DNA of 60,885 nucleotides, taken from a virus. Its lineage: Duplodnaviria > Caudoviricetes. The notes beneath the pieces are model-generated. The model did not search any database. It was not told the origin of the DNA and worked only from the letters and a program-made list of their open reading frames with translations. Below are positions 10,853-33,361 of this stretch, one piece after another. The stretch is from the IMG/VR virus record IMGVR_UViG_3300030419_000057, positions 1 through 60,885 of that record. One strand, 5' to 3'. The translations under genes and the position numbers were made by a program. Numbering within the stretch: position 1 is the first letter of the stretch; each line of letters begins with the position of its first letter.

Positions 10853-11229
10853 GTACAGCAACTAAGCGTGACCCTAAGAAGTGGGCTGCTGCTAAAGCTA
10901 GAGCAAAGGCTAAGATGGGAGGGAAGCATAGTGCAAGAGCTATGCAATTAGCTGTTAAATATTATAAAGATTCTGGAGGAACATACTCAGGTGGGAAAAA
11001 GAAAAGTAATAAACTATCTAAGTGGAGTAAACAAAAGTGGAGAACTAAGTCTGGTAAACCATCTAGTAAGACTGGTGAAAGATATCTTCCAGAAAAAGCT
11101 ATCAAATCTTTATCTTCTAAAGAGTATGCTGCTACTACGGCAGCTAAACGTAAGGGAACAGCAAAAGGTAAACAGTTTGTTAGACAACCTAAGAGTATAG
11201 CTAAAAAAACTAAGAGGTTTAGAACATGA
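10849..11229 (+). CDS. Small highly basic protein (start MSTATKR)
   Basis: Lys-rich, with HSARAMQL and KWSKQKWRTKSG...ERYLPEKA motifs recalled from marine phage proteins. Confidence 0.65.
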   Translation: MSTATKRDPKKWAAAKARAKAKMGGKHSARAMQLAVKYYKDSGGTYSGGKKKSNKLSKWSKQKWRTKSGKPSSKTGERYLPEKAIKSLSSKEYAATTAAKRKGTAKGKQFVRQPKSIAKKTKRFRT

Positions 11230-11513
11230 CAAAACGTAAAGGAACTATGAAGGGTCACACTATAGGAGGAGGGCATAAGCGTCCTACTAAGAAGGGAGCA
11301 GGAATGACTGCTAAAGGAGTGGCTAAATATAGAAGGGATAATCCTGGGAGTAAACTAAAGACTGCTGTAACTGAAAAGAAACCTACTGGTAAACGTGCAT
11401 CTAGACGTAAGAGTTACTGTGCTAGAAGTGCAGGGCAAATGAAAAAGTTTCCTAAAGCTGCACGTAATCCTAATTCAAGACTAAGACAAGCTAGAAAAAG
11501 ATGGAGATGTTAA
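11226..11513 (+). CDS. Small highly basic protein (DUF6321-like)
   Basis: GMTAKGVAKYRRDNPGSKLKTAV, RRKSYCARS, NSRLRQARKRWRC. Confidence 0.6.
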   Translation: MTKRKGTMKGHTIGGGHKRPTKKGAGMTAKGVAKYRRDNPGSKLKTAVTEKKPTGKRASRRKSYCARSAGQMKKFPKAARNPNSRLRQARKRWRC

Positions 11514-12299: not shown

Positions 12300-12706
12300 C
12301 TACTCTTTCTCATGTTCTCTCTGGCTACACCCTTGAACTTTTCTGCTGACCTAGCAGCACCTAGTCCTAGTAATGATAGAGTAAGGGTCATTAACCCTTC
12401 AGTAGGTATAACAGGAATAACTATGTCTGCACCTGATACAGCTATAGCCCATACGAATACAGGTTGGAATACAAACTGCCATCCTAATCCAAATGCACAT
12501 ATCCACATGATAGCTGGCCTACTTCCACTAACAAAGATAGAAGGATGCTTTGCCTGTTCTATATTAGCCTGTGCTTGAGCAAGGTCAAGGCTAACCATCT
12601 GTTGTTTAAGTTCTGCATTAAGTTTAGTCTTTAAGTCTTTATCTTCTACAAACTTATCTAAAACTTTTCCTGCTACCCCTACAATACTATCTGCTAATCC
12701 TAACAT
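12296..12706 (-). CDS. Holin (GTA 3TM holin-like)
   Basis: LDKFVEDKD, ANIEQAKH.SIFVSGSRPAIMW, LLGLGAARSAEKFKG. Confidence 0.75.
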   Translation of the reverse strand: MLGLADSIVGVAGKVLDKFVEDKDLKTKLNAELKQQMVSLDLAQAQANIEQAKHPSIFVSGSRPAIMWICAFGLGWQFVFQPVFVWAIAVSGADIVIPVIPTEGLMTLTLSLLGLGAARSAEKFKGVARENMRKSR

Positions 12707-14982
12707 GGTAGAAACTCCTTATAATGTTTAGTCTTACTCATACGTGAATTATTCCACAAAGTTTTTACAAGTGTGTTCTCTCCATGAACAGTGATCTCCA
12801 TATCTACATCATCACGTTCAAAGAGTTTTTCACAGTCCTGTGCCATAGCAAGTAACTCACCTGTAGTCCAGAACTTATGATCATCTACGGTCACATTCAT
12901 ATACTTAGGTCTGCCATCTCTCTCTTTCTTTTTCTTCTCTTTGTCTGATGGCTCTGGTATAATACAGTCATAACCAAACAAGTCAAAGGTTCTAAATCCT
13001 AGTATATGCATCATCCCTATAGCTCTCATAGCTGCACACGTTCCTCCTGTAATGAAGGTAGTATCAGGTGGTATATCAAACTCTTCAGAAACTTGTATTG
13101 TATTATCTCTTACAGGTCTATTCTTATCTGTAGATGCACGTAAAGTTTCTGAAAAGGCGTGCCATCCCCACAGATTAGCTCCCTGTTTTTTGAGCAGCCT
13201 TGTTACTGAGGGGTTAGTCATAGATGCTAAAAAGAATATAGTATTCTTATCTACCTTATTAAACAAACTCTTACGAATAATTCCATGCGTAGACTTACCG
13301 CTTAGTGGTCTTGGGTCTAGTATAACACATCCCCACGGTTGTATGCCATGTTTTAAAAGATGGGGGTATGAATGTTTAACACAGACTACACGAGTATTAT
13401 CTTTACGGCTTAGTTCTTTTACATGGCTCCAGTCTGTACTGGCTCCTCCTGATACGATAATTACTCTATCCGAATGTGCTCTACCCTTTTCTAACCAATT
13501 GTCCATAAGTTTAATATTCTTTTTAATATTACTTACAAGGTTCTGATCAGGTACACAGTCTTTAGGAGTGACATGAATAGGAACTTGCATAACCTTATTA
13601 GTTAAGTCTGGAATATCAGGATCATTAAGTATTACTGCGAGGTGAGTAAACCCTCCCTCACGTACCCCATCACTGGATGGTAGTACATACTTACGATTGG
13701 TTGTCTGTTCAATAATTCTATTTACTTCTTGGAACTCTGGTTCTACACAGTTACCATCCTTATCAGCCGTAAAGAAATCATCAAAGACCAATACAGGAAT
13801 ATGTTTAAGTTTACCATAATCATTCTGAACTGTAGCTGTACTATGTCCACCGTCAATGTAAGCTAGGTCTGCATTTATATCATTCTCTAATGTTTGGTTA
13901 GTATCTCCTTTTATTAATTCAAAAGTAAAAGTTTTATTCCTTTCTTTCATCTTAGCTTTGAACTCATTAAGATGTTTAGTAATATCTTTTACTGATACAA
14001 TCTTTTTAGCGTTAAGTTCTTTAGCACTAAGTTCTTCATTACCATCTTCAAATAGATCATGTCCTATATAATGAAAGTCATCTCTATTTTCAAAGGAAGC
14101 AAGAGCCATTTCAATAGCACGTTGTCCTATCCATGTACCTGTTTCTACTACCCTAGCTGGCTGGTACTGACGTATAATGTCTGCTAATTGTTTATACCGT
14201 TGTGCTGGAGGAATAGGTTTACCTTGTACTTTTTCTTTACGATCTCCTTTAAGATGTTCCATAAATTCACTTAGAGGAAAGGACTCAAAGGCTTGCTTAC
14301 CTTTTACAAGGTCTGTTATATCTAAGTGACCAGTGAAGTCTTGTACTCTCATACCATGAGCACGATAGATAGTTAGTAGTCTTTCAAAGACAAACCCATC
14401 ATGCCACTCACGATAGTTGACTACCTCACCAGAGTTGTAGGCTCCACGTAAATCACCTAGTAAATCTAAGGCTCCACGATATTTAAGATTAAATGCCATG
14501 AAGGATGTTTCACTGTAGTCAAAATGTTTTCTTCCTAAGAAAGCTAACTCTGCTTTAGGATTAAGAAATTTATCTAAGTCTTTGGAAGTAAAGTCTTTCT
14601 TAGTAAACGTATCTGCATCTAACCAGATACACCAGCCTGGATCACGGCTGTCATCAGCTAATTCAAATGCAAATTCTGTTAAAGCAAAAACTTTATGACA
14701 AAACTTTATAGCATCTAGTCTAAAGTTATACTGTAATTGTCCACCTTCTGTACCATTATGTTTTTTAAATGTTTCTCTAAAGGCAGTCATCTCTGTAAGA
14801 AGATTAAGATTACGATATTCTATATGAGGAGGACGAGGAACATCATGCTTATCTATATCAAAGTCATGGTAGTATACAGTCAACTTGAGTGGCTCTTTCC
14901 AGTGTCGTGCAGCAGTCTCAAGCATCTTCATACCATAAAGTTTTAGACCCTCTTCATTCATAGAGGTTATAAAGTTATACAT
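12700..14982 (-). CDS. Three-domain protein: GT-A glycosyltransferase-like, class I SAM methyltransferase, MptE/DUF115(Maf)-like
   Basis: KFCHKVFA..WLDAD (DxD); VVETGT, YIDGGHS, VFDD; IVSGGAS, ILDPR, LGFRTFDLFGYD. Confidence 0.65.
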   Translation of the reverse strand: MYNFITSMNEEGLKLYGMKMLETAARHWKEPLKLTVYYHDFDIDKHDVPRPPHIEYRNLNLLTEMTAFRETFKKHNGTEGGQLQYNFRLDAIKFCHKVFALTEFAFELADDSRDPGWCIWLDADTFTKKDFTSKDLDKFLNPKAELAFLGRKHFDYSETSFMAFNLKYRGALDLLGDLRGAYNSGEVVNYREWHDGFVFERLLTIYRAHGMRVQDFTGHLDITDLVKGKQAFESFPLSEFMEHLKGDRKEKVQGKPIPPAQRYKQLADIIRQYQPARVVETGTWIGQRAIEMALASFENRDDFHYIGHDLFEDGNEELSAKELNAKKIVSVKDITKHLNEFKAKMKERNKTFTFELIKGDTNQTLENDINADLAYIDGGHSTATVQNDYGKLKHIPVLVFDDFFTADKDGNCVEPEFQEVNRIIEQTTNRKYVLPSSDGVREGGFTHLAVILNDPDIPDLTNKVMQVPIHVTPKDCVPDQNLVSNIKKNIKLMDNWLEKGRAHSDRVIIVSGGASTDWSHVKELSRKDNTRVVCVKHSYPHLLKHGIQPWGCVILDPRPLSGKSTHGIIRKSLFNKVDKNTIFFLASMTNPSVTRLLKKQGANLWGWHAFSETLRASTDKNRPVRDNTIQVSEEFDIPPDTTFITGGTCAAMRAIGMMHILGFRTFDLFGYDCIIPEPSDKEKKKKERDGRPKYMNVTVDDHKFWTTGELLAMAQDCEKLFERDDVDMEITVHGENTLVKTLWNNSRMSKTKHYKEFLPC

Positions 14983-26748: not shown

Positions 26749-27273
26749 TTAATCTCCTCCATAATAATAGAATAAATGTTTACCTATCTTTGTTATAAAT
26801 TCTAGTTCATATATCCAATATGGACTAACATAAGATGCATGATAGAAAGTAGCACCCTGTATTTCTTCATAGATAACACCATCAATAGCCATACGTGCTA
26901 CATCCTGTGCCGTCTTAAGTGCTTGTTTATCCTGCATAATTTCTGGTTTACCATCACACCAGTACGAAAAGGCACATTTATTTCTTATAGGATTTCCCTC
27001 CCAATATCTTCCATCATGTACAACTTCACATACAGTTGATGGAAATCTACTATCTCTAACTCGTTCTAATATTACATTAGCTACTGCTAATTGTCCAATA
27101 AAACTTTCACTTCTTGCTTCAAAATATACAGCTTCAGTTAAACATTCTTCATCAGTTGGTTGAGCTTCAGCTTTATTTATTAGCGTTAATGTTGCAAAGA
27201 AAATTGCAATAGTAATCATACTAATAAATAATATTTTAAAAGAAGTACTATACTTTATGTGCGACTTATCCAT
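26749..27273 (-). CDS. Cell wall hydrolase, SleB/Hydrolase_2 family, with N-terminal membrane anchor
   Basis: CLTEAVYFEARSE, VANVILERV, FPSTVCEVV, FSYWCDG, GATFYHA, IGKHLFY. Confidence 0.88.
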   Translation of the reverse strand: MDKSHIKYSTSFKILFISMITIAIFFATLTLINKAEAQPTDEECLTEAVYFEARSESFIGQLAVANVILERVRDSRFPSTVCEVVHDGRYWEGNPIRNKCAFSYWCDGKPEIMQDKQALKTAQDVARMAIDGVIYEEIQGATFYHASYVSPYWIYELEFITKIGKHLFYYYGGD

Positions 27274-28188: not shown

Positions 28189-28358
28189 TACTCATCTCCA
28201 GTGTCTAGAACTTCATATAAATAATCTTCACACTGTTCAATTATACGAGCAAGCTCTTTATGTCCATGATTTGCAGCATCATCATACATTTCTTTGAATG
28301 TACCTAAAGTTTTTAATGCCCACTCTCTTTCTTTTATTGCAGCCTCATATAAATTCAT
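28188..28358 (-). CDS. 56-aa hypothetical protein (not in ORF track)
   Basis: MNLYEAAIKEREWALK...; ATGA overlap with upstream stop and GGAG SD. Confidence 0.55.
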   Translation of the reverse strand: MNLYEAAIKEREWALKTLGTFKEMYDDAANHGHKELARIIEQCEDYLYEVLDTGDE

Positions 28359-29311
28359 CTCAATTCTCCAGTTTCTTCGTAGTAATCAATCATAATGGGC
28401 CTTGTCCACTCCTTAGAGCGTAGCATCTTACGTACCCTTTCTTCACGCATCACCCTTACATTTTGTAAGTTCTCTGATCGTGCTTTAGCTTGGCCTTTAT
28501 TTGTATGTGTAGACCAGTGCGTAGCTGCTTGGTAAGCAGTCCATAGACTACCTACATCCTGCTTATTCTTTCCTTCATACAAAGCCTTGCCGTGACAGTG
28601 ACGGTTCTCTTGGTCAAAGATGTTCATCAGGTGAGAGAGAATAACTTTGTTATGTTTATTCTTACGGGTCACATTATCAGTACGCTTTGCTAATGTAGCC
28701 TTGAATAATTTTACCGCATCGTCACGGTGTAAGGGAGTGTTAAACCATTCCTTCATTTCTTTGATGGCATCTCCTCTAATATATTCTCCTGCATTTTTTA
28801 TCTTCGCAGTAAAAGCAGGGAGGTTAAAACCTTTGGTATGCCTACCATAGACATAAGCCAGCTTGTTGCCAGACACTAGACTATTCCAGCATGAGCTTCT
28901 CCATAGTCCCATCATTCCATTGTTAGCCCACGTTCCATCCTGACTAGTACGAAACTTGAACTCTGGTTTTACCACACCCACTCCATCTATGCTTGTTTCA
29001 TGGGCAGGGAAGTCTGCAATTAATTCTAATTGTGCTCCACCTCTGTAGACTTTAGTTTCAAACCTAGCATTAGTTAAATCCATACCAGATTTGGCAATAG
29101 CATTTTCTATGTCTTGTACTGTAGTCTTATACTGCATCACTTCGTACCTGTCTTTAACTACAGCAAAAGGTTTCTTGTTATCCTTCCTTCGGAGCAAGGA
29201 ACCTACATCTGATCCCACTTGTGGAAAATAATCTCCTCTTGATTCATACTGATACAGTGGAACTTTCTCTACTTCAAAATCTATTACATCGTGGTTAAAC
29301 ATCGTTGTCAT
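28355..29311 (-). CDS. DUF932-like protein
   Basis: VVKDRYEVMQ, TSQDGT, CWNSL, RHTKG, SLWTAYQAATHWSTH. Confidence 0.65.
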   Translation of the reverse strand: MTTMFNHDVIDFEVEKVPLYQYESRGDYFPQVGSDVGSLLRRKDNKKPFAVVKDRYEVMQYKTTVQDIENAIAKSGMDLTNARFETKVYRGGAQLELIADFPAHETSIDGVGVVKPEFKFRTSQDGTWANNGMMGLWRSSCWNSLVSGNKLAYVYGRHTKGFNLPAFTAKIKNAGEYIRGDAIKEMKEWFNTPLHRDDAVKLFKATLAKRTDNVTRKNKHNKVILSHLMNIFDQENRHCHGKALYEGKNKQDVGSLWTAYQAATHWSTHTNKGQAKARSENLQNVRVMREERVRKMLRSKEWTRPIMIDYYEETGELR

Positions 29312-29460: not shown

Positions 29461-29682
29461 TTATTCCTCAACATATTGGTTTATCATAGGTTCTTCTTCT
29501 GCCATTTGTGCTACCATTACAGTACAGTCTGTAATAACAGACATAGCTAAACATATTTCAGACCATTCATCAGCATACTCCATGCTGTCTTCATCTTGTC
29601 CTATCTTGTTTCCTAAAGAATCTTCAGCATAAGAATGTAATATATTCCATATGTGATCTAATGCTTGTTCAGTAGTCATCAT
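29461..29682 (-). CDS. Hypothetical acidic early protein
   Basis: ORF track; AGGAG SD. Confidence 0.6.
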   Translation of the reverse strand: MMTTEQALDHIWNILHSYAEDSLGNKIGQDEDSMEYADEWSEICLAMSVITDCTVMVAQMAEEEPMINQYVEE

Positions 29683-29879
29683 CTTACTACTCCTACAGTT
29701 TCTAATTTTTGATTACGTACTCCAAAGACATCTATCTTTTGAGCATCACCATCAGGTGATGTAACTTCTACACTTACTACTGTATAGAAATCTCCATCTT
29801 TATCATTCATTTCCATATGATCTACTCTAACTTCAATCTTTGAAGCCTCGTGAAAATATATATTTGTTTTACCAGCCAT
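29679..29879 (-). CDS. Hypothetical early protein
   Basis: ORF track; AAGGA SD. Confidence 0.6.
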   Translation of the reverse strand: MAGKTNIYFHEASKIEVRVDHMEMNDKDGDFYTVVSVEVTSPDGDAQKIDVFGVRNQKLETVGVVR

Positions 29880-29881
29880 AA

Positions 29882-30103
29882 TTAATTCCTTCTCTTTTTA
29901 AGATAATCAGATATAGCACAATGCACATCTATTTCTAGTTCATCTTCTCGTAACCATTCCTCTGCACGATTCTGATACAGAGCATGAGCGATAGCTTGCT
30001 CAATAAATTCTTCTATGTTATTATCTATATAATCATAGATCGTACTAACAGCTTCATCATACATATCTTCCAGTTGAGATTGGACTGGTGATGGTAACGA
30101 CAT
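29882..30103 (-). CDS. Hypothetical acidic early protein
   Basis: AAGGAG SD directly after hairpin copy 3. Confidence 0.65.
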   Translation of the reverse strand: MSLPSPVQSQLEDMYDEAVSTIYDYIDNNIEEFIEQAIAHALYQNRAEEWLREDELEIDVHCAISDYLKKRRN

Positions 30104-30119
30104 ATCATTCTCCTTATCT

Positions 30120-30165
30120 TATATCTCTAAGGTATTTCACTACGTTCAATACCGTAAGAGATATA
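30120..30165 (-). repeat. Dispersed hairpin element, copy 3
   Basis: UAUAUCUCU-UAC-GGUAUU...AAUACC-UU-AGAGAUAUA; loop shares ACGUAGUG with copy 1. Confidence 0.8.
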
Positions 30166-30252
30166 TAGGTTTACCAAACAATACTCCCACATAGTAATAA
30201 TGTAAAGAGTAAACTAAACAATAATATATTATTGTACATTACTAACCCTTTT

Positions 30253-30483
30253 TTATAACATCTCCCCATCTACTAGGATGGGACTGTCTGTTTCAATCCA
30301 TACGTGAGCACCACAAGACAAAGGTTTATCAGGTCTATAGACTACTCGTGCTTTACCAGAAAACTCTACGGTATTACCGTATCTATTTTCTTTGTAAGTT
30401 TTACAAGTCAAGACAGGATCACTCACGTTATTCTTACGATTAGCTTTGATAACGTGTTGATTTACATGGATAATTCTTTTCAT
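30253..30483 (-). CDS. Conserved small phage protein
   Basis: IHVNQHVIKAN...VVYRPDKPLSCGAHVWIET. Confidence 0.7.
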   Translation of the reverse strand: MKRIIHVNQHVIKANRKNNVSDPVLTCKTYKENRYGNTVEFSGKARVVYRPDKPLSCGAHVWIETDSPILVDGEML

Positions 30484-30484
30484 A

Positions 30485-30646
30485 TCATACCTCTATGTCT
30501 ATCTTATGTTTAGGTTTCCTAGTATAGGAACCCCTACCTCTTTTAGGTTTTTCTGCGTCAGCTTTTCTTTGCTTGGCATGAACTACAAAAGGATTTCTTT
30601 TGTACATCATTCTGTTAGATGTACTACTTGGTGCTGTTACTTTCAT
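30485..30646 (-). CDS. ArfA-like basic peptide, 53 aa (not in ORF track)
   Basis: GGAGG SD; ...RNPFVVHAKQRKADAEKPKRGRGSYTRKPKHK; resembles the ArfA KKGKGSYxRK motif. Confidence 0.6.
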   Translation of the reverse strand: MKVTAPSSTSNRMMYKRNPFVVHAKQRKADAEKPKRGRGSYTRKPKHKIDIEV

Positions 30647-30848
30647 GTCTATCCCTCCAGTAATCCTCCATTACTGTAGTATATCTTTCTGGATTATAGA
30701 TAAAGATAAATCTTTCATCTCTGTCTAATGCCCAAATAGGATAAGGTAATGGAGGTTTCATCCACCTATCTTCTACGTCTATCATTGTTTTAAGTTCAAG
30801 GTCTGTTAAGTAAACTTTTTTAAGTTTAGTATTCTTATCTACAAACAT
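30624..30848 (-). CDS. Hypothetical protein (likely start MFVDK)
   Basis: GGAG SD before 30848. Confidence 0.55.
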   Translation of the reverse strand: MFVDKNTKLKKVYLTDLELKTMIDVEDRWMKPPLPYPIWALDRDERFIFIYNPERYTTVMEDYWRDRHESNSTK

Positions 30849-31075
30849 TATGGTTTCTCCAATACACAACTAACTGTATAGGTTCCATCTTTGTTCTTTT
30901 GTTTAAAGACTATGTAAGGTTTATACCCCTCTACTTGGGCAGCATAGACTTTAGCTTTTGTCTGTTTAACCATTCCTACTTGGTTACATTCATGTTTACC
31001 TACATATTTCCAGTCGTTATCCTTAACTTGATAAGAAGTTAAGATAACAATAACAGCTAATACAAATCCAATCAT
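30848..31075 (-). CDS. Small protein with N-terminal hydrophobic signal or anchor
   Basis: MIGFVLAVIVIL; AAGGAG SD. Confidence 0.6.
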   Translation of the reverse strand: MIGFVLAVIVILTSYQVKDNDWKYVGKHECNQVGMVKQTKAKVYAAQVEGYKPYIVFKQKNKDGTYTVSCVLEKP

Positions 31076-31077
31076 TT

Positions 31078-31368
31078 TTATTCTCCTTTTGTGGTAATAT
31101 CAAGAAATAATTCTTCTTGTCCAGTGCAATCTTCTTGTAAAAAACCATTATCTAAACGTTTAATTGGGTAAGCTGTAGCTCTAACAGCTACTACATTTTC
31201 TTTAGACCAATCTAATTCTATGTTAATAGACTGTTTATGATCTTTTGTATCAACCCATATATCCCCTTCAAGTATCTCACTGGATACCTTACCATCATCT
31301 ACTGCTTCTTTAATTTCTCTTAGTAATCCTACGATTACAGCTTCCAACAGTTTTTCTCTGTGTTTCAT
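31078..31368 (-). CDS. Hypothetical protein
   Basis: AAGGAG SD; ORF track. Confidence 0.65.
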   Translation of the reverse strand: MKHREKLLEAVIVGLLREIKEAVDDGKVSSEILEGDIWVDTKDHKQSINIELDWSKENVVAVRATAYPIKRLDNGFLQEDCTGQEELFLDITTKGE

Positions 31369-31378
31369 TTCATTCTCC

Positions 31379-31990
31379 TTAATATTTCTTGACTTTTTCT
31401 ACAATCGTATCCGTAGTGCTATGATTATAACATAGTAAACAGTCTTTGCACTTTTGTCCAGTACAATTTTGTTGATCTACATGCTCATGCTCCAAGACAT
31501 TATTAAATGTCTTATCAAAGTATAGTGGTGGAGTAGCCATGATGCTACTAATAGTAGGGTTGCTATAGATTACAATCAAGTTCTTTGGCTTTTCAACATA
31601 GTCAAAAAGTCTTTTAATATAATCTTTACGCTTTGTCCACAAAGCAAAGTTACAATGCGGATTATGCTTAACGATAGCTACAAGGTTAGCTAAATGTTGC
31701 ATATTAATTAGCTCACCATGAGCATCAAACCTAAAGAAAGCATCCAGTATTACTGGCAATTCTTCTTTGCTCAAAGTCTTGGAACTTAGAAGATCACTGT
31801 TACGCTGCAAAGCAGCAGCCATATTCTTTCTATATCCTTTAAGCATGGTATGGCTGTAACAATGCTTGCAAATTGTTTCCTTCTTTGCTTTGTTCATCTT
31901 GATGCAAAAAGGATTAGTCAAAGTATTAGTGCTAATAGCTTTAAAACCGTCCAGCTTACCAGTCATTTTACTAATGTGAACATTAGTCAT
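31379..31990 (-). CDS. Cys-rich gp88-like / radical-SAM-related protein
   Basis: SKMTGK, C..CKHCY, FRFDAHGEL, ALWTKR, PKNL, C-terminal C...CKDCLLC. Confidence 0.55.
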   Translation of the reverse strand: MTNVHISKMTGKLDGFKAISTNTLTNPFCIKMNKAKKETICKHCYSHTMLKGYRKNMAAALQRNSDLLSSKTLSKEELPVILDAFFRFDAHGELINMQHLANLVAIVKHNPHCNFALWTKRKDYIKRLFDYVEKPKNLIVIYSNPTISSIMATPPLYFDKTFNNVLEHEHVDQQNCTGQKCKDCLLCYNHSTTDTIVEKVKKY

Positions 31991-32223
31991 TATATAAACT
32001 CCACTTTAAAATCTGCATCACCTTTACGGTGAATCCAACGTGTCCATTTAGTATCAACAGACTGTATTAAAATCATATCTTCTCCCAGAAACTTATAAGT
32101 TTCATTCATTAGATGATCTTCTGCATACAGTGGGCCAGATACTCCATCCCATAATTCTCCATGAGAATTAATACGTCTTTTACCATACTCAGTAAGCCCT
32201 GTCAAACGTACCATGTTAGCCAT
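31990..32223 (-). CDS. Hypothetical protein, paralog of 32338-32544
   Basis: VRLTGLTEYGKRRINSHGELW...RWIH..GDADFKVE. Confidence 0.65.
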   Translation of the reverse strand: MANMVRLTGLTEYGKRRINSHGELWDGVSGPLYAEDHLMNETYKFLGEDMILIQSVDTKWTRWIHRKGDADFKVEFI

Positions 32224-32964: not shown

Positions 32965-33053
32965 GGTGAGAGGGCAGGGAATTGAACCCTGCGTTAGCCT
33001 ACCCTAATAGACCTACAGTGTTTTAGGGACACTGTAAACCAGCCATGCCTCTC
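32965..33053 (-). ncRNA. tRNA-like RNA (non-canonical: no D-stem, 8-bp arm with CCCUAAA loop, long variable arm)
   Basis: Acceptor GAGAGG/CCUCUC-ACC, T-arm GCAGGG-UUCAAUU-CCCUGC, UACAGUGU/ACACUGUA, GGUCUA/UAGGCU. Confidence 0.7.
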
Positions 33054-33060
33054 GTAAATC

Positions 33061-33105
33061 TTCTTATGTGAAGCAGATACCCCGTTGATATCTGCCCCAT
33101 AAAAA
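33061..33105 (-). repeat. Second hairpin family, copy A (GG/UUCA internal loop)
   Basis: UUUUUAUG-GG-GCAGAUAU...GUAUCUGC-UUCA-CAUAAGAA, just after a stop codon. Confidence 0.65.
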
Positions 33106-33275: not shown

Positions 33276-33294
33276 GAGCTATCCAGCCCTCCTT

Positions 33295-33361
33295 ATATAA
33301 GAAACTCTAAGTGGTGTTCGTAAGAACTCACACCACTAAGAGTATCTATATTAACAACAAG
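33295..33361 (-). repeat. Dispersed hairpin element, copy 5
   Basis: ACUCU-U-AGUGGU-GUGA-GUUC-UUAC-GAAC-ACCACU-U-AGAGU, then SD. Confidence 0.85.

Follow-up and report, generated by a model that had tools for sequence, protein, structure and literature searches.

Genomic locus of the ArfA-like gene

The window, i.e. the whole stretch of DNA that was analysed, corresponds to a complete IMG/VR virus record (60,885 bp) which, judged by its gene content, represents a tailed phage. Its minus strand harbours a leftward block, extending from about 35.4 to 11.5 kb, of small early genes together with the genes of a primase-helicase, a DNA polymerase and a ribonucleotide reductase, and terminase, portal and structural genes are found in rightward blocks. 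In this early/replication block, with a divergent promoter-like region (near 35.4 kb) on one side and the replication and reductase genes on the other, an ORF of 53 codons is embedded among small genes of unknown function (30646 to 30485, minus strand). It starts with ATG and ends with TGA at 30485-30487. Seven nucleotides before the ATG, and within the 3' end of the upstream gene (81 codons; 30624-30869, minus strand), a Shine-Dalgarno sequence, GGAGGG, is present at 30653 to 30658 of the same strand. An initial annotation of this DNA had reported a 53-codon ORF with a GGAGG Shine-Dalgarno sequence, giving no strand, and a characteristic motif, EKPKRGRGSYTRKPKH, within its product; all of these are found, the motif constituting residues 32-47 of the 53-aa protein.

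The TGA of the ORF is separated by a single base from the start codon of a downstream gene encoding 76 amino acids (TGA-T-ATG; 30253 to 30483, minus strand; phrog_8676, function unknown). This arrangement is shared by a sister phage of 62.7 kb (L002), where the ArfA-like gene is accompanied by the same neighbouring genes and preceded by a weaker Shine-Dalgarno sequence (GGAAGGA); it suggests that translation of the two genes may be coupled within one operon. No translation-related Pfam or PHROG family is present among the neighbouring genes within about 4 kb. Elsewhere, the leftward block encodes a protein of 760 aa that combines MptE-like and methyltransferase domains (12700-14982), a protein with a cell-wall hydrolase domain (26749-27273), a DUF932 protein (28355-29311) and a Cys-rich GP88-family protein (31379-31990), all on the minus strand.

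Among cultured phages, the group of the pelagiphages HTVC023P and HTVC027P and a few Roseobacter phages come closest when terminase and a capsid-module protein are compared, the identity amounting to no more than 32-42% for the former protein and 28-45% for the latter. DNA of the window occurs in marine metagenomes (20 sequencing-run entries, all of them marine metagenome DNA, with no RNA run among them). Searches of GenBank phages by megablast with positions 29500-32000 and by tblastn with the 53-aa protein yielded no match, for which a low-complexity filter or the exclusion of near-identical records is a possible cause.

Conservation of the reading frame

By means of a word-index search seven candidate relatives were obtained, all of which share 75-98% identity with the window protein. 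Four of them are uncut proteins of 53 aa, while the remaining three represent the same protein in longer form: in the public gene calls of P0002, P0003 and P0005 it is lengthened by reading TGA as tryptophan or by choosing an upstream start. Such extensions seem to stem from a gene caller using an alternative code setting and not to reflect a biological feature. Compared with the sister phage, 14 codons differ, eight of them synonymously and six non-synonymously; within residues 33-48 there are four synonymous changes, one exchange of Arg for Lys and one of Thr for Val. Since length and frame are maintained at 75-98% identity and since eight of the 14 codon differences are synonymous, we consider the ORF, on this comparative evidence, a genuine gene. 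An accidental open frame, with the true signal residing on the opposite strand where a 57-aa ORF (30506-30679) overlaps it, is extremely improbable, as all flanking genes are located on the minus strand, frame, length and motif are preserved at 75% identity, the synonymous excess falls in the minus frame, and Shine-Dalgarno sequence as well as start and stop codons are coupled with the neighbouring genes.

A HMMER search with a profile of the subfamily against 1.84 billion representative sequences returned 15 proteins at E≤1e-3, of which 12 are small (34-67 aa) and exhibit the same architecture as the window protein. The other three (P0009, P0011 and P0015; 456-913 aa) are tandem-repeat proteins with many weakly matching stretches and were dropped as artefacts. 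In the alignment of the 11 members of the subfamily (A4), Arg17, Asn18, Pro19, Phe20, Arg27, Lys28, Gly37, Gly39, Ser40 and Arg43 are invariant.

Relationship to ArfA

Among the Pfam families ArfA (PF03889) matches the window protein best, with 20.0 bits and an E-value of 4.8e-4, yet this score remains under the gathering cut-off of 25.5 bits and covers profile positions 27-44 of 44 only. Up to E≤10 it is accompanied by a single unrelated weak match. When the whole 60,885-bp genome was scanned in six frames with PF03889, one match resulted, at 30503-30556 on the minus strand (E 7.8e-5, 18.9 bits). In 14 control genomes scanned with the same profile E. coli was the sole match at E≤0.01 as well as at E≤0.001, while looser limits led to matches in seven (E≤1) or ten (E≤10) of the 14. 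Since loose limits thus match many control genomes, the sub-threshold Pfam match on its own is weak.

Searches of the PDB (177,635 sequences) gave a clearer picture. Whether the single sequence, the profile of the subfamily alone (A4; best E 4.8e-4) or a wider profile (A3; best E 2.5e-7) was used as query, all six matches were ArfA chains. The search with A4 is the cleaner test as its members were gathered without any reference to ArfA. Its profile aligns to ArfA over residues 30-48 only, and composition bias accounts for 4.2 of the 22.5 bits; the matched stretch is short and rich in Lys, Arg and Gly, so that the scores are somewhat inflated by composition. For a profile-profile comparison, ArfA sequences were collected among 81 genomes from the order to which a Vibrio genome belongs. 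Of these genomes, 22 supplied one; 17 of the sequences were usable, four of the others lacking the exact seed motif and one a start codon in range. Aligned by hhalign with these 17 gammaproteobacterial ArfAs, A4 attains a probability of 97.5% and an E-value of 7.7e-12 over 30 ungapped columns. Moreover, PF03889 is matched at E≤0.01 by all but one of the 17 members of A3, a relative with 75% identity (P0007) bears a precomputed PF03889 match, and two cluster members are named “stalled ribosome alternative rescue factor ArfA” in IMG. Graded intermediates link the subfamily of the window protein to phage ArfAs which pass the Pfam cut-off, and it is through these that the N-terminal halves can be joined.

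On the strength of these comparisons we regard the likeness to ArfA as homology that spans the functional core (E. coli residues 14-45). The suggestion of the initial annotation that an ArfA-like small protein is encoded is thereby borne out, and the profile comparison which it had proposed as a check places ArfA first and succeeds at the level of profile against profile, albeit not at the Pfam cut-off. It had also named the opposite outcome, a chance Lys/Gly-rich similarity without any profile match. One may indeed imagine an unrelated basic phage peptide, for instance a nucleic-acid binder, which shares such a stretch by chance or convergence: the Pfam match stays under its threshold, the stretch concerned is short and biased in composition, and PF03889 meets control genomes at loose limits. 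We nevertheless hold this to be very unlikely, since three PDB searches match nothing but ArfA, the profile-profile probability is high, graded intermediates lead to Pfam-passing phage ArfAs, the position of the motif and the protein length agree with ArfA, and at E≤0.001 no control genome other than that of E. coli is matched.

In scans with the family alignments at least 580 stretches of viral contigs and 191 of bacterial genomes matched the degenerate motif, of which two viral and one bacterial passed confirmation by tblastn against the first sequence, so that these counts must not be read as numbers of homologues. The subfamily carrying the RNPF motif described below was thereby confirmed in no bacterial genome.

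The predicted C-terminal tunnel segment

Residues 32-48 of the window protein, EKPKRGRGSYTRKPKHK (30503 to 30553, minus strand), are, according to the Pfam and PDB alignments, homologous to the segment by which ArfA occupies the mRNA tunnel (E. coli residues 30-46, including the KGKGS and KH motifs). At E. coli positions 30-45 the ArfA chains in the PDB show EKNKKGKGSYMRKGKH, in agreement with the motif as given in the initial annotation, and these positions align to residues 32-47 of the window protein. With the full-length E. coli chain the alignment comprises residues 20-45, matched to residues 22-47 at a constant offset of +2; residues 33-47, KPKRGRGSYTRKPKH, are hence in register with E. 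coli residues 31-45. The tail KGRGSY..RK.KH is conserved in the window protein and, written more generally as EK.K+G+GSY.RK.KH, is common to it and bacterial ArfA in the same register.

In E. coli ArfA, residues 31-48 occupy the mRNA tunnel, and truncation at Asn47 leaves the protein active while truncation after Met40 abolishes binding (PMC5378476); the KH motif touches the tunnel entry (PMC8012679). The window protein possesses the equivalent of this basic segment, with KGKGS and KH motifs, which reaches past the position of Asn47; its frame closes after six further codons beyond KH, matching residue 51 of E. coli ArfA in position. The mature form of ArfA measures 52-55 aa, and the statement of the initial annotation that the ORF stops just past the motif, as in the active truncated form of ArfA, is therefore accurate. 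Judged from these alignments, it is well supported that this part of the peptide would bind a vacant mRNA channel.

The KHK sequence is followed by an alternating hydrophobic tail, IDIEV (residues 49-53; 30488 to 30502, minus strand), which is invariant or nearly so in the close subfamily, has related counterparts in P0008, P0012, P0018 and P0020, and is without counterpart in the bacterial ArfAs aligned. The arrangement by which bacteria produce ArfA from a nonstop mRNA is absent: the frame is closed by an in-frame TGA and, unlike in bacterial ORFs, there is no long C-terminal extension. RNA folding of the 3' end of the ORF gave no single dominant hairpin. Because the gene possesses its own stop codon and the nonstop-mRNA control was not found, constitutive expression is plausible. 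With respect to the constitutive rescue factor put forward by the initial annotation, it is this part of the claim which is upheld; recruitment of RF2 is inferred, since the residues that grip it in E. coli, Leu24 and Phe25, are replaced by Gln26 and Arg27 (see below).

In the arfA frames of bacteria from the Vibrio-related order we observed that shortly after KH several end in ...KAA, ...MAA, ...IAA, ...ALA or ...MVA (L016, L030, L032 and L034-L038). In appearance they resemble degradation tags of the ssrA type encoded within the gene itself. Two loci, L019 and L024, display long hydrophobic extensions instead of such tag-like endings.

The putative release-factor-facing half

An invariant feature of the N-terminal half is the motif RNPF (residues 17-20; 30587 to 30598, minus strand), found in all 11 members of the subfamily. 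Asn18 aligns with the conserved Asn (Asn14 in E. coli) that marks the start of the ArfA helix and hardly varies among 15 ArfA-like sequences from phages and bacteria. The subsequent residues 21-31, VVHAKQRKADA (30554 to 30586, minus strand), correspond to the end of this helix, the Phe25 anchor and the β-strand Gln27-Glu30. This region is charged and two residues shorter than in ArfA.

In the E. coli complex, ArfA residues His21 to Glu30 are located in the A site, Leu19, Leu24 and Phe25 bind Trp319, Val198 and Phe217 of RF2, and Ala18 packs in the N-terminal minidomain (PMC5378476). Residues Gln27 to Glu30 pair as a strand with RF2 (PMC8012679), and Phe25 is said to account for the specificity towards RF2 (PMC5378476, PMC6299226, PMC8012679). 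The exchange Ala18Thr preserves binding and abolishes activation (PMC5378476, PMC8012679), and pairs of ArfA and RF2 are said to be adapted to each other within a species (PMC8012679).

The hydrophobic RF2 patch formed by Leu19, Leu24 and Phe25 is not found in the window protein. Irrespective of the alignment used (ungapped phmmer and hhalign, gapped HMM, MAFFT), Leu24 and Phe25 are replaced by Gln26 and Arg27, of which Arg27, like the following Lys28, is invariant in all 11 subfamily members. The counterpart of Leu19 depends on the alignment: it is Val21 in the ungapped one, position 23 in the gapped HMM (His in the window protein, Leu in relatives) and a gap in that of MAFFT. Likewise, the deletion removes the equivalents of either Ala18/Leu19 or His21/Asp22, the two residues missing between the NP motif and Gln26/Arg27 relative to all other ArfA-like sequences. 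Hydrophobic residues do follow Asn18, but two residues of the N-terminal helix region are absent. The equivalent of the strand Gln27-Glu30 is Ala29-Asp30-Ala31-Glu32, and the pairing of ArfA with RF2 runs through the backbone; Glu32, corresponding to Glu30 at the end of this strand, is nearly invariant in the subfamily.

An AlphaFold2 model of the monomer (mean pLDDT 64.5) predicts with low confidence a single short helix at residues 21-26. Prediction of a complex between the peptide (A4) and the Swiss-Prot entry RF2_ECOLI, E. coli serving as stand-in host, with neither the ribosome nor controls included, gave no answer (score 0.00). According to the alignments, Arg17, Asn18, Pro19, Phe20, Arg27 and Lys28 appear as a second surface under selection, as invariant as the tunnel motif. 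Since the tunnel segment and KH are kept and Leu24/Phe25 are replaced, the sensing half of the peptide would be ArfA-like, while the half facing the release factor is conserved within the subfamily but unlike ArfA.

Comparison with known rescue systems

With bacterial ArfA (E. coli YhdL; PF03889; PDB 5MGP, 5MDV, 5U4I and 5H5U) the window protein has in common its size (53 aa versus 52-55 aa of the mature form), the conserved Asn at the helix start and the Glu at the end of the strand pairing with RF2; it is also, as ArfA, predicted with low confidence to be largely unstructured on its own. It differs in scoring below the Pfam cut-off, in the two-residue deletion, in Gln26/Arg27 replacing Leu24/Phe25, in the extra IDIEV tail and in the RNPF motif, where bacterial ArfA shows D/E-N/S-A followed by a hydrophobic residue. 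Furthermore, bacterial ArfA arises from a nonstop mRNA cut by RNase III under the control of tmRNA, whereas the window protein is phage-encoded and has its own stop codon.

ArfT of Francisella and BrfA of Bacillus are likewise small peptides with a basic C-terminal tail, and the rescue which they perform depends on a release factor. The KH motif is found in BrfA too, and a normal mRNA is the template of ArfT (PMC6299226, PMC8012679); ArfT, 40 aa in length with a similar basic tail, activates RF1 or RF2 (PMC6299226). Its tail, KKGGSTNKK, differs from that of the window protein. The PDB searches at E≤10 gave ArfA chains only and no match to the solved BrfA chain, while for ArfT the comparison covers the tail. 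The ArfA, ArfT and BrfA families are regarded as independently evolved (PMC8012679).

A resemblance of another kind is presented by DUF7230 (PF23876), represented by the small protein Acj9p003 of a T4-like Acinetobacter phage, Acj9 (L043 1489-1620; 45.4 bits) and, weakly, by an ORF of Rhizobium phage IC12 (L042 1498-1641; 20.7 bits). The start of these proteins, K/R-N-P-I/V-A-K-A, resembles that of phage ArfA-like peptides, but the GKGSY tail is missing, and in Pfam the window protein has no match to PF23876 at E≤10. On the basis of these sequence features DUF7230 may have branched off from phage ArfA.

The tRNA-like element

About 2.3 kb upstream of the ArfA-like ORF a tRNA-like gene of 97 nt is located (32968-33064, minus strand), which contains a CUA anticodon and is designated “tRNA-Pyl” by ARAGORN. 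Rfam reveals a weak tRNA-Sec-like match (21.2 bits, E 0.27) and, at gathering thresholds, no match in the window. In the predicted fold an acceptor stem and a T arm are accompanied by an anticodon-type hairpin and a long extra arm. The copy of the sister phage (L002 3658-3749, plus strand) is about 96% identical, so that the element exceeds both the ArfA-like gene and the adjacent coding DNA in conservation; one change in the acceptor stem between the two phages leaves the pairing intact as G-U. Probably the element is a functional RNA belonging to the same leftward unit as the ArfA-like gene.

A genome recoded to be served by this element was considered and discarded: there is no sign of it, TAG being an ordinary stop which ends 12 of 83 putative genes and whose opening leaves the longest ORFs unlengthened. 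Suppressor read-through would create more ribosomes in need of rescue, which makes a functional link with the ArfA-like gene possible. Such a link to a nearby tRNA mimic had been drawn in the initial annotation. The element itself is present here and in the sister phage, but the link is weak, as in three other phage lineages (L003, L004/L005 and L009) ARAGORN finds no tRNA closer to the ArfA-like gene than about 5 kb (3 kb in the case of L009).

The surrounding ORF-poor stretch from 32.8 to 33.9 kb also contains a strong hairpin (33291-33354, minus strand; with a spurious mir-5 match of 29.9 bits, E 0.0017). Together, hairpin and tRNA-like element may mark a non-coding RNA region.

ArfA-like peptides of other phages

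By scans and tblastn, small ORFs resembling ArfA were detected in further phages. Six of nine phage peptides examined pass the Pfam cut-off for ArfA, four of them from cultured phages: Brevundimonas phage Kikimora (37.3 bits) and Citromicrobium phage RXM (g10; 29.6 bits), both annotated as ArfA in GenBank, the latter also so named in PMC8953757, Roseobacter phage CRP-212 (33.3 bits; “hypothetical” in GenBank) and Caulobacter phage Cr30 (27.2 bits; no CDS in GenBank). Two IMG/VR contigs, L004 from a 338-kb phage (37.4 bits) and L003 (25.8 bits), complete this group. Below the cut-off lies gp30 of pelagiphage HTVC027P (20.2 bits), which is “hypothetical” in GenBank and is described in PMC12753301 as an ArfA-domain protein highly expressed both early and late. 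The remaining two of the nine, Acj9p003 and the ORF of IC12, match DUF7230 instead of ArfA. The designation “unannotated” in the initial annotation is accordingly correct for the present record but not for the kind as such, annotated examples of which exist in IMG and among GenBank phages, where there are three.

The window protein resembles these peptides in being encoded by a short ORF with its own stop, in carrying [KR]NP before the helix and in its KGKGS[YF]-type tail. The [KR]NP start, where bacterial ArfAs show D/E-N/S-A, is shared by most phage ArfA-like peptides. Unlike the window protein, the others exhibit no two-residue deletion and retain P-x-Tyr/Phe/Leu at the position of Pro23-Leu24-Phe25, so that the subfamily of the window protein stands apart.

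The cultured phages above the cut-off infect Alphaproteobacteria. In a survey of 15,259 genomes arfA was present in none of 2,376 Alphaproteobacteria (PMC11633108), and C. crescentus, the host of Cr30, is said not to encode ArfA. In a full-text literature search, covering neither subscription journals nor supplements, phage ArfA was encountered as annotation only and no functional study was found; the accessible part of PMC6514570, which treats ArfT and ArfA, does not mention phage copies.

The ORF of Cr30 comprises 50 codons (L040 1450-1602; KF301602.1 about 11139-11291, complement) and is located two genes upstream of an annotated RNA ligase. That of CRP-212 (L041 1495-1620) lies inside the span of the 3' end of a 3.6-kb CDS for a “hypothetical protein”, gp38; either the annotation of gp38 may be over-extended or two frames may overlap.

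Discussion

Phage ArfA-like peptides are, in places, already annotated as such, and the window protein is, judged by its sequence, a divergent variant of them. We favour, with somewhat more confidence than doubt, its interpretation as a constitutively made rescue factor whose ArfA-type tail would sense the empty mRNA tunnel and whose own N-terminal surface would recruit a release factor of the host. A small, mostly unstructured peptide would be translated, within the leftward early/replication operon, from an ordinary mRNA, its frame being closed by a stop codon. Its basic C-terminal half would thread into the mRNA entry tunnel of ribosomes in which both A site and tunnel are empty, as is to be expected of those stalled at the 3' end of a cleaved or truncated mRNA. 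The conserved N-terminal half (RNPF...KQRKA..E) would then keep a class-I release factor of the host in the A site, which would cleave the peptidyl-tRNA without a stop codon and free the ribosome. In this way ribosomes would become available to the phage in the course of takeover, as host mRNA is broken down or as mRNA or tRNA is cut by nuclease defences, independently of the tmRNA capacity of the host. Ribosome binding, the identity of the release factor, activation of hydrolysis and the benefit to the phage are what we infer in this scheme.

The unusual release-factor half permits two further explanations. One is that the peptide plugs the tunnel without causing release: it would bind the vacant mRNA channel, not activate any release factor and compete with tmRNA-SmpB or ArfB, for instance to spare phage nascent chains from degradation tagging or to aid host shut-off. 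That the tunnel segment is kept while Leu24/Phe25 have become Gln/Arg with a two-residue deletion nearby is what such a plug might look like; the Ala18Thr variant of E. coli ArfA illustrates that binding can occur apart from activation, and a synthetic peptide of the SmpB tail inhibits binding of tmRNA-SmpB (PMC8012679). Yet the N-terminal half, needless in a simple plug, is as conserved as the tail, with RNPF, Arg27 and Lys28 found in each of the 11 members, and blocked rescue would trap the very ribosomes that the phage requires. In addition, other phage ArfA-like peptides keep the P-x-aromatic/Leu motif, and the ancestral function in phages was therefore probably rescue. Taken together, we assess mere plugging as unlikely.

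The second explanation retains rescue but assigns it to another partner, in that the peptide, like ArfT, would engage RF1, either alongside RF2 or in its place, by a contact surface of its own. Loss of the Phe25 anchor, the residue credited with specificity for RF2, counts against simple ArfA-type binding of RF2; RNPF and KQRK are new relative to bacterial ArfA, and ArfT, with its 40 aa and similar basic tail, exemplifies a peptide that accepts either factor. Glu32 and the register of the β-strand are, however, preserved and fit an ArfA-type pairing with domain 2 of RF2, for which reason we give an ArfT-like partner a distinctly low probability.

Extending the preferred reading, that of a constitutive rescue factor, to the phages as a group leads to a picture which we offer with considerable reserve and deem possible rather than probable. 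Minimal ArfA-derived peptides of 34-62 aa with [KR]NP and their own stop would form a clade peculiar to phages and would carry release-factor-dependent rescue to hosts devoid of ArfA, as in the case of phages of Caulobacter, Brevundimonas, Roseobacter, Citromicrobium and SAR11. The marine subfamily of the window protein would have rebuilt its release-factor contact, with RNPF/KQRK in place of the Leu24/Phe25 patch, so that a different partner or mode of contact is possible, and the peptides would recycle ribosomes stranded on mRNAs cut in the course of takeover or by RNA-cleaving defence.

Two features deserve attention, namely a release-factor surface that departs from that of ArfA and the seeming spread of such genes to phages of ArfA-less hosts. 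The ORF of Cr30, which passes the Pfam cut-off and has nevertheless escaped annotation, exemplifies how genes of clear function with fewer than 60 codons are overlooked in phage genomes. The peptides are tiny and readily synthesised and, as cultured phages with related genes exist (Cr30, HTVC027P), the idea is testable. ArfA-type rescue is regarded as a reserve mechanism which Gammaproteobacteria and some Betaproteobacteria possess and which tmRNA keeps silent. If the interpretation given here is true, a phage ArfA with its own stop would be an always-on rescue factor for takeover or counter-defence, and the subfamily of the window protein, since it dispenses with the Phe25 anchor, would constitute a natural experiment on the residues of ArfA that are required to recruit a release factor.
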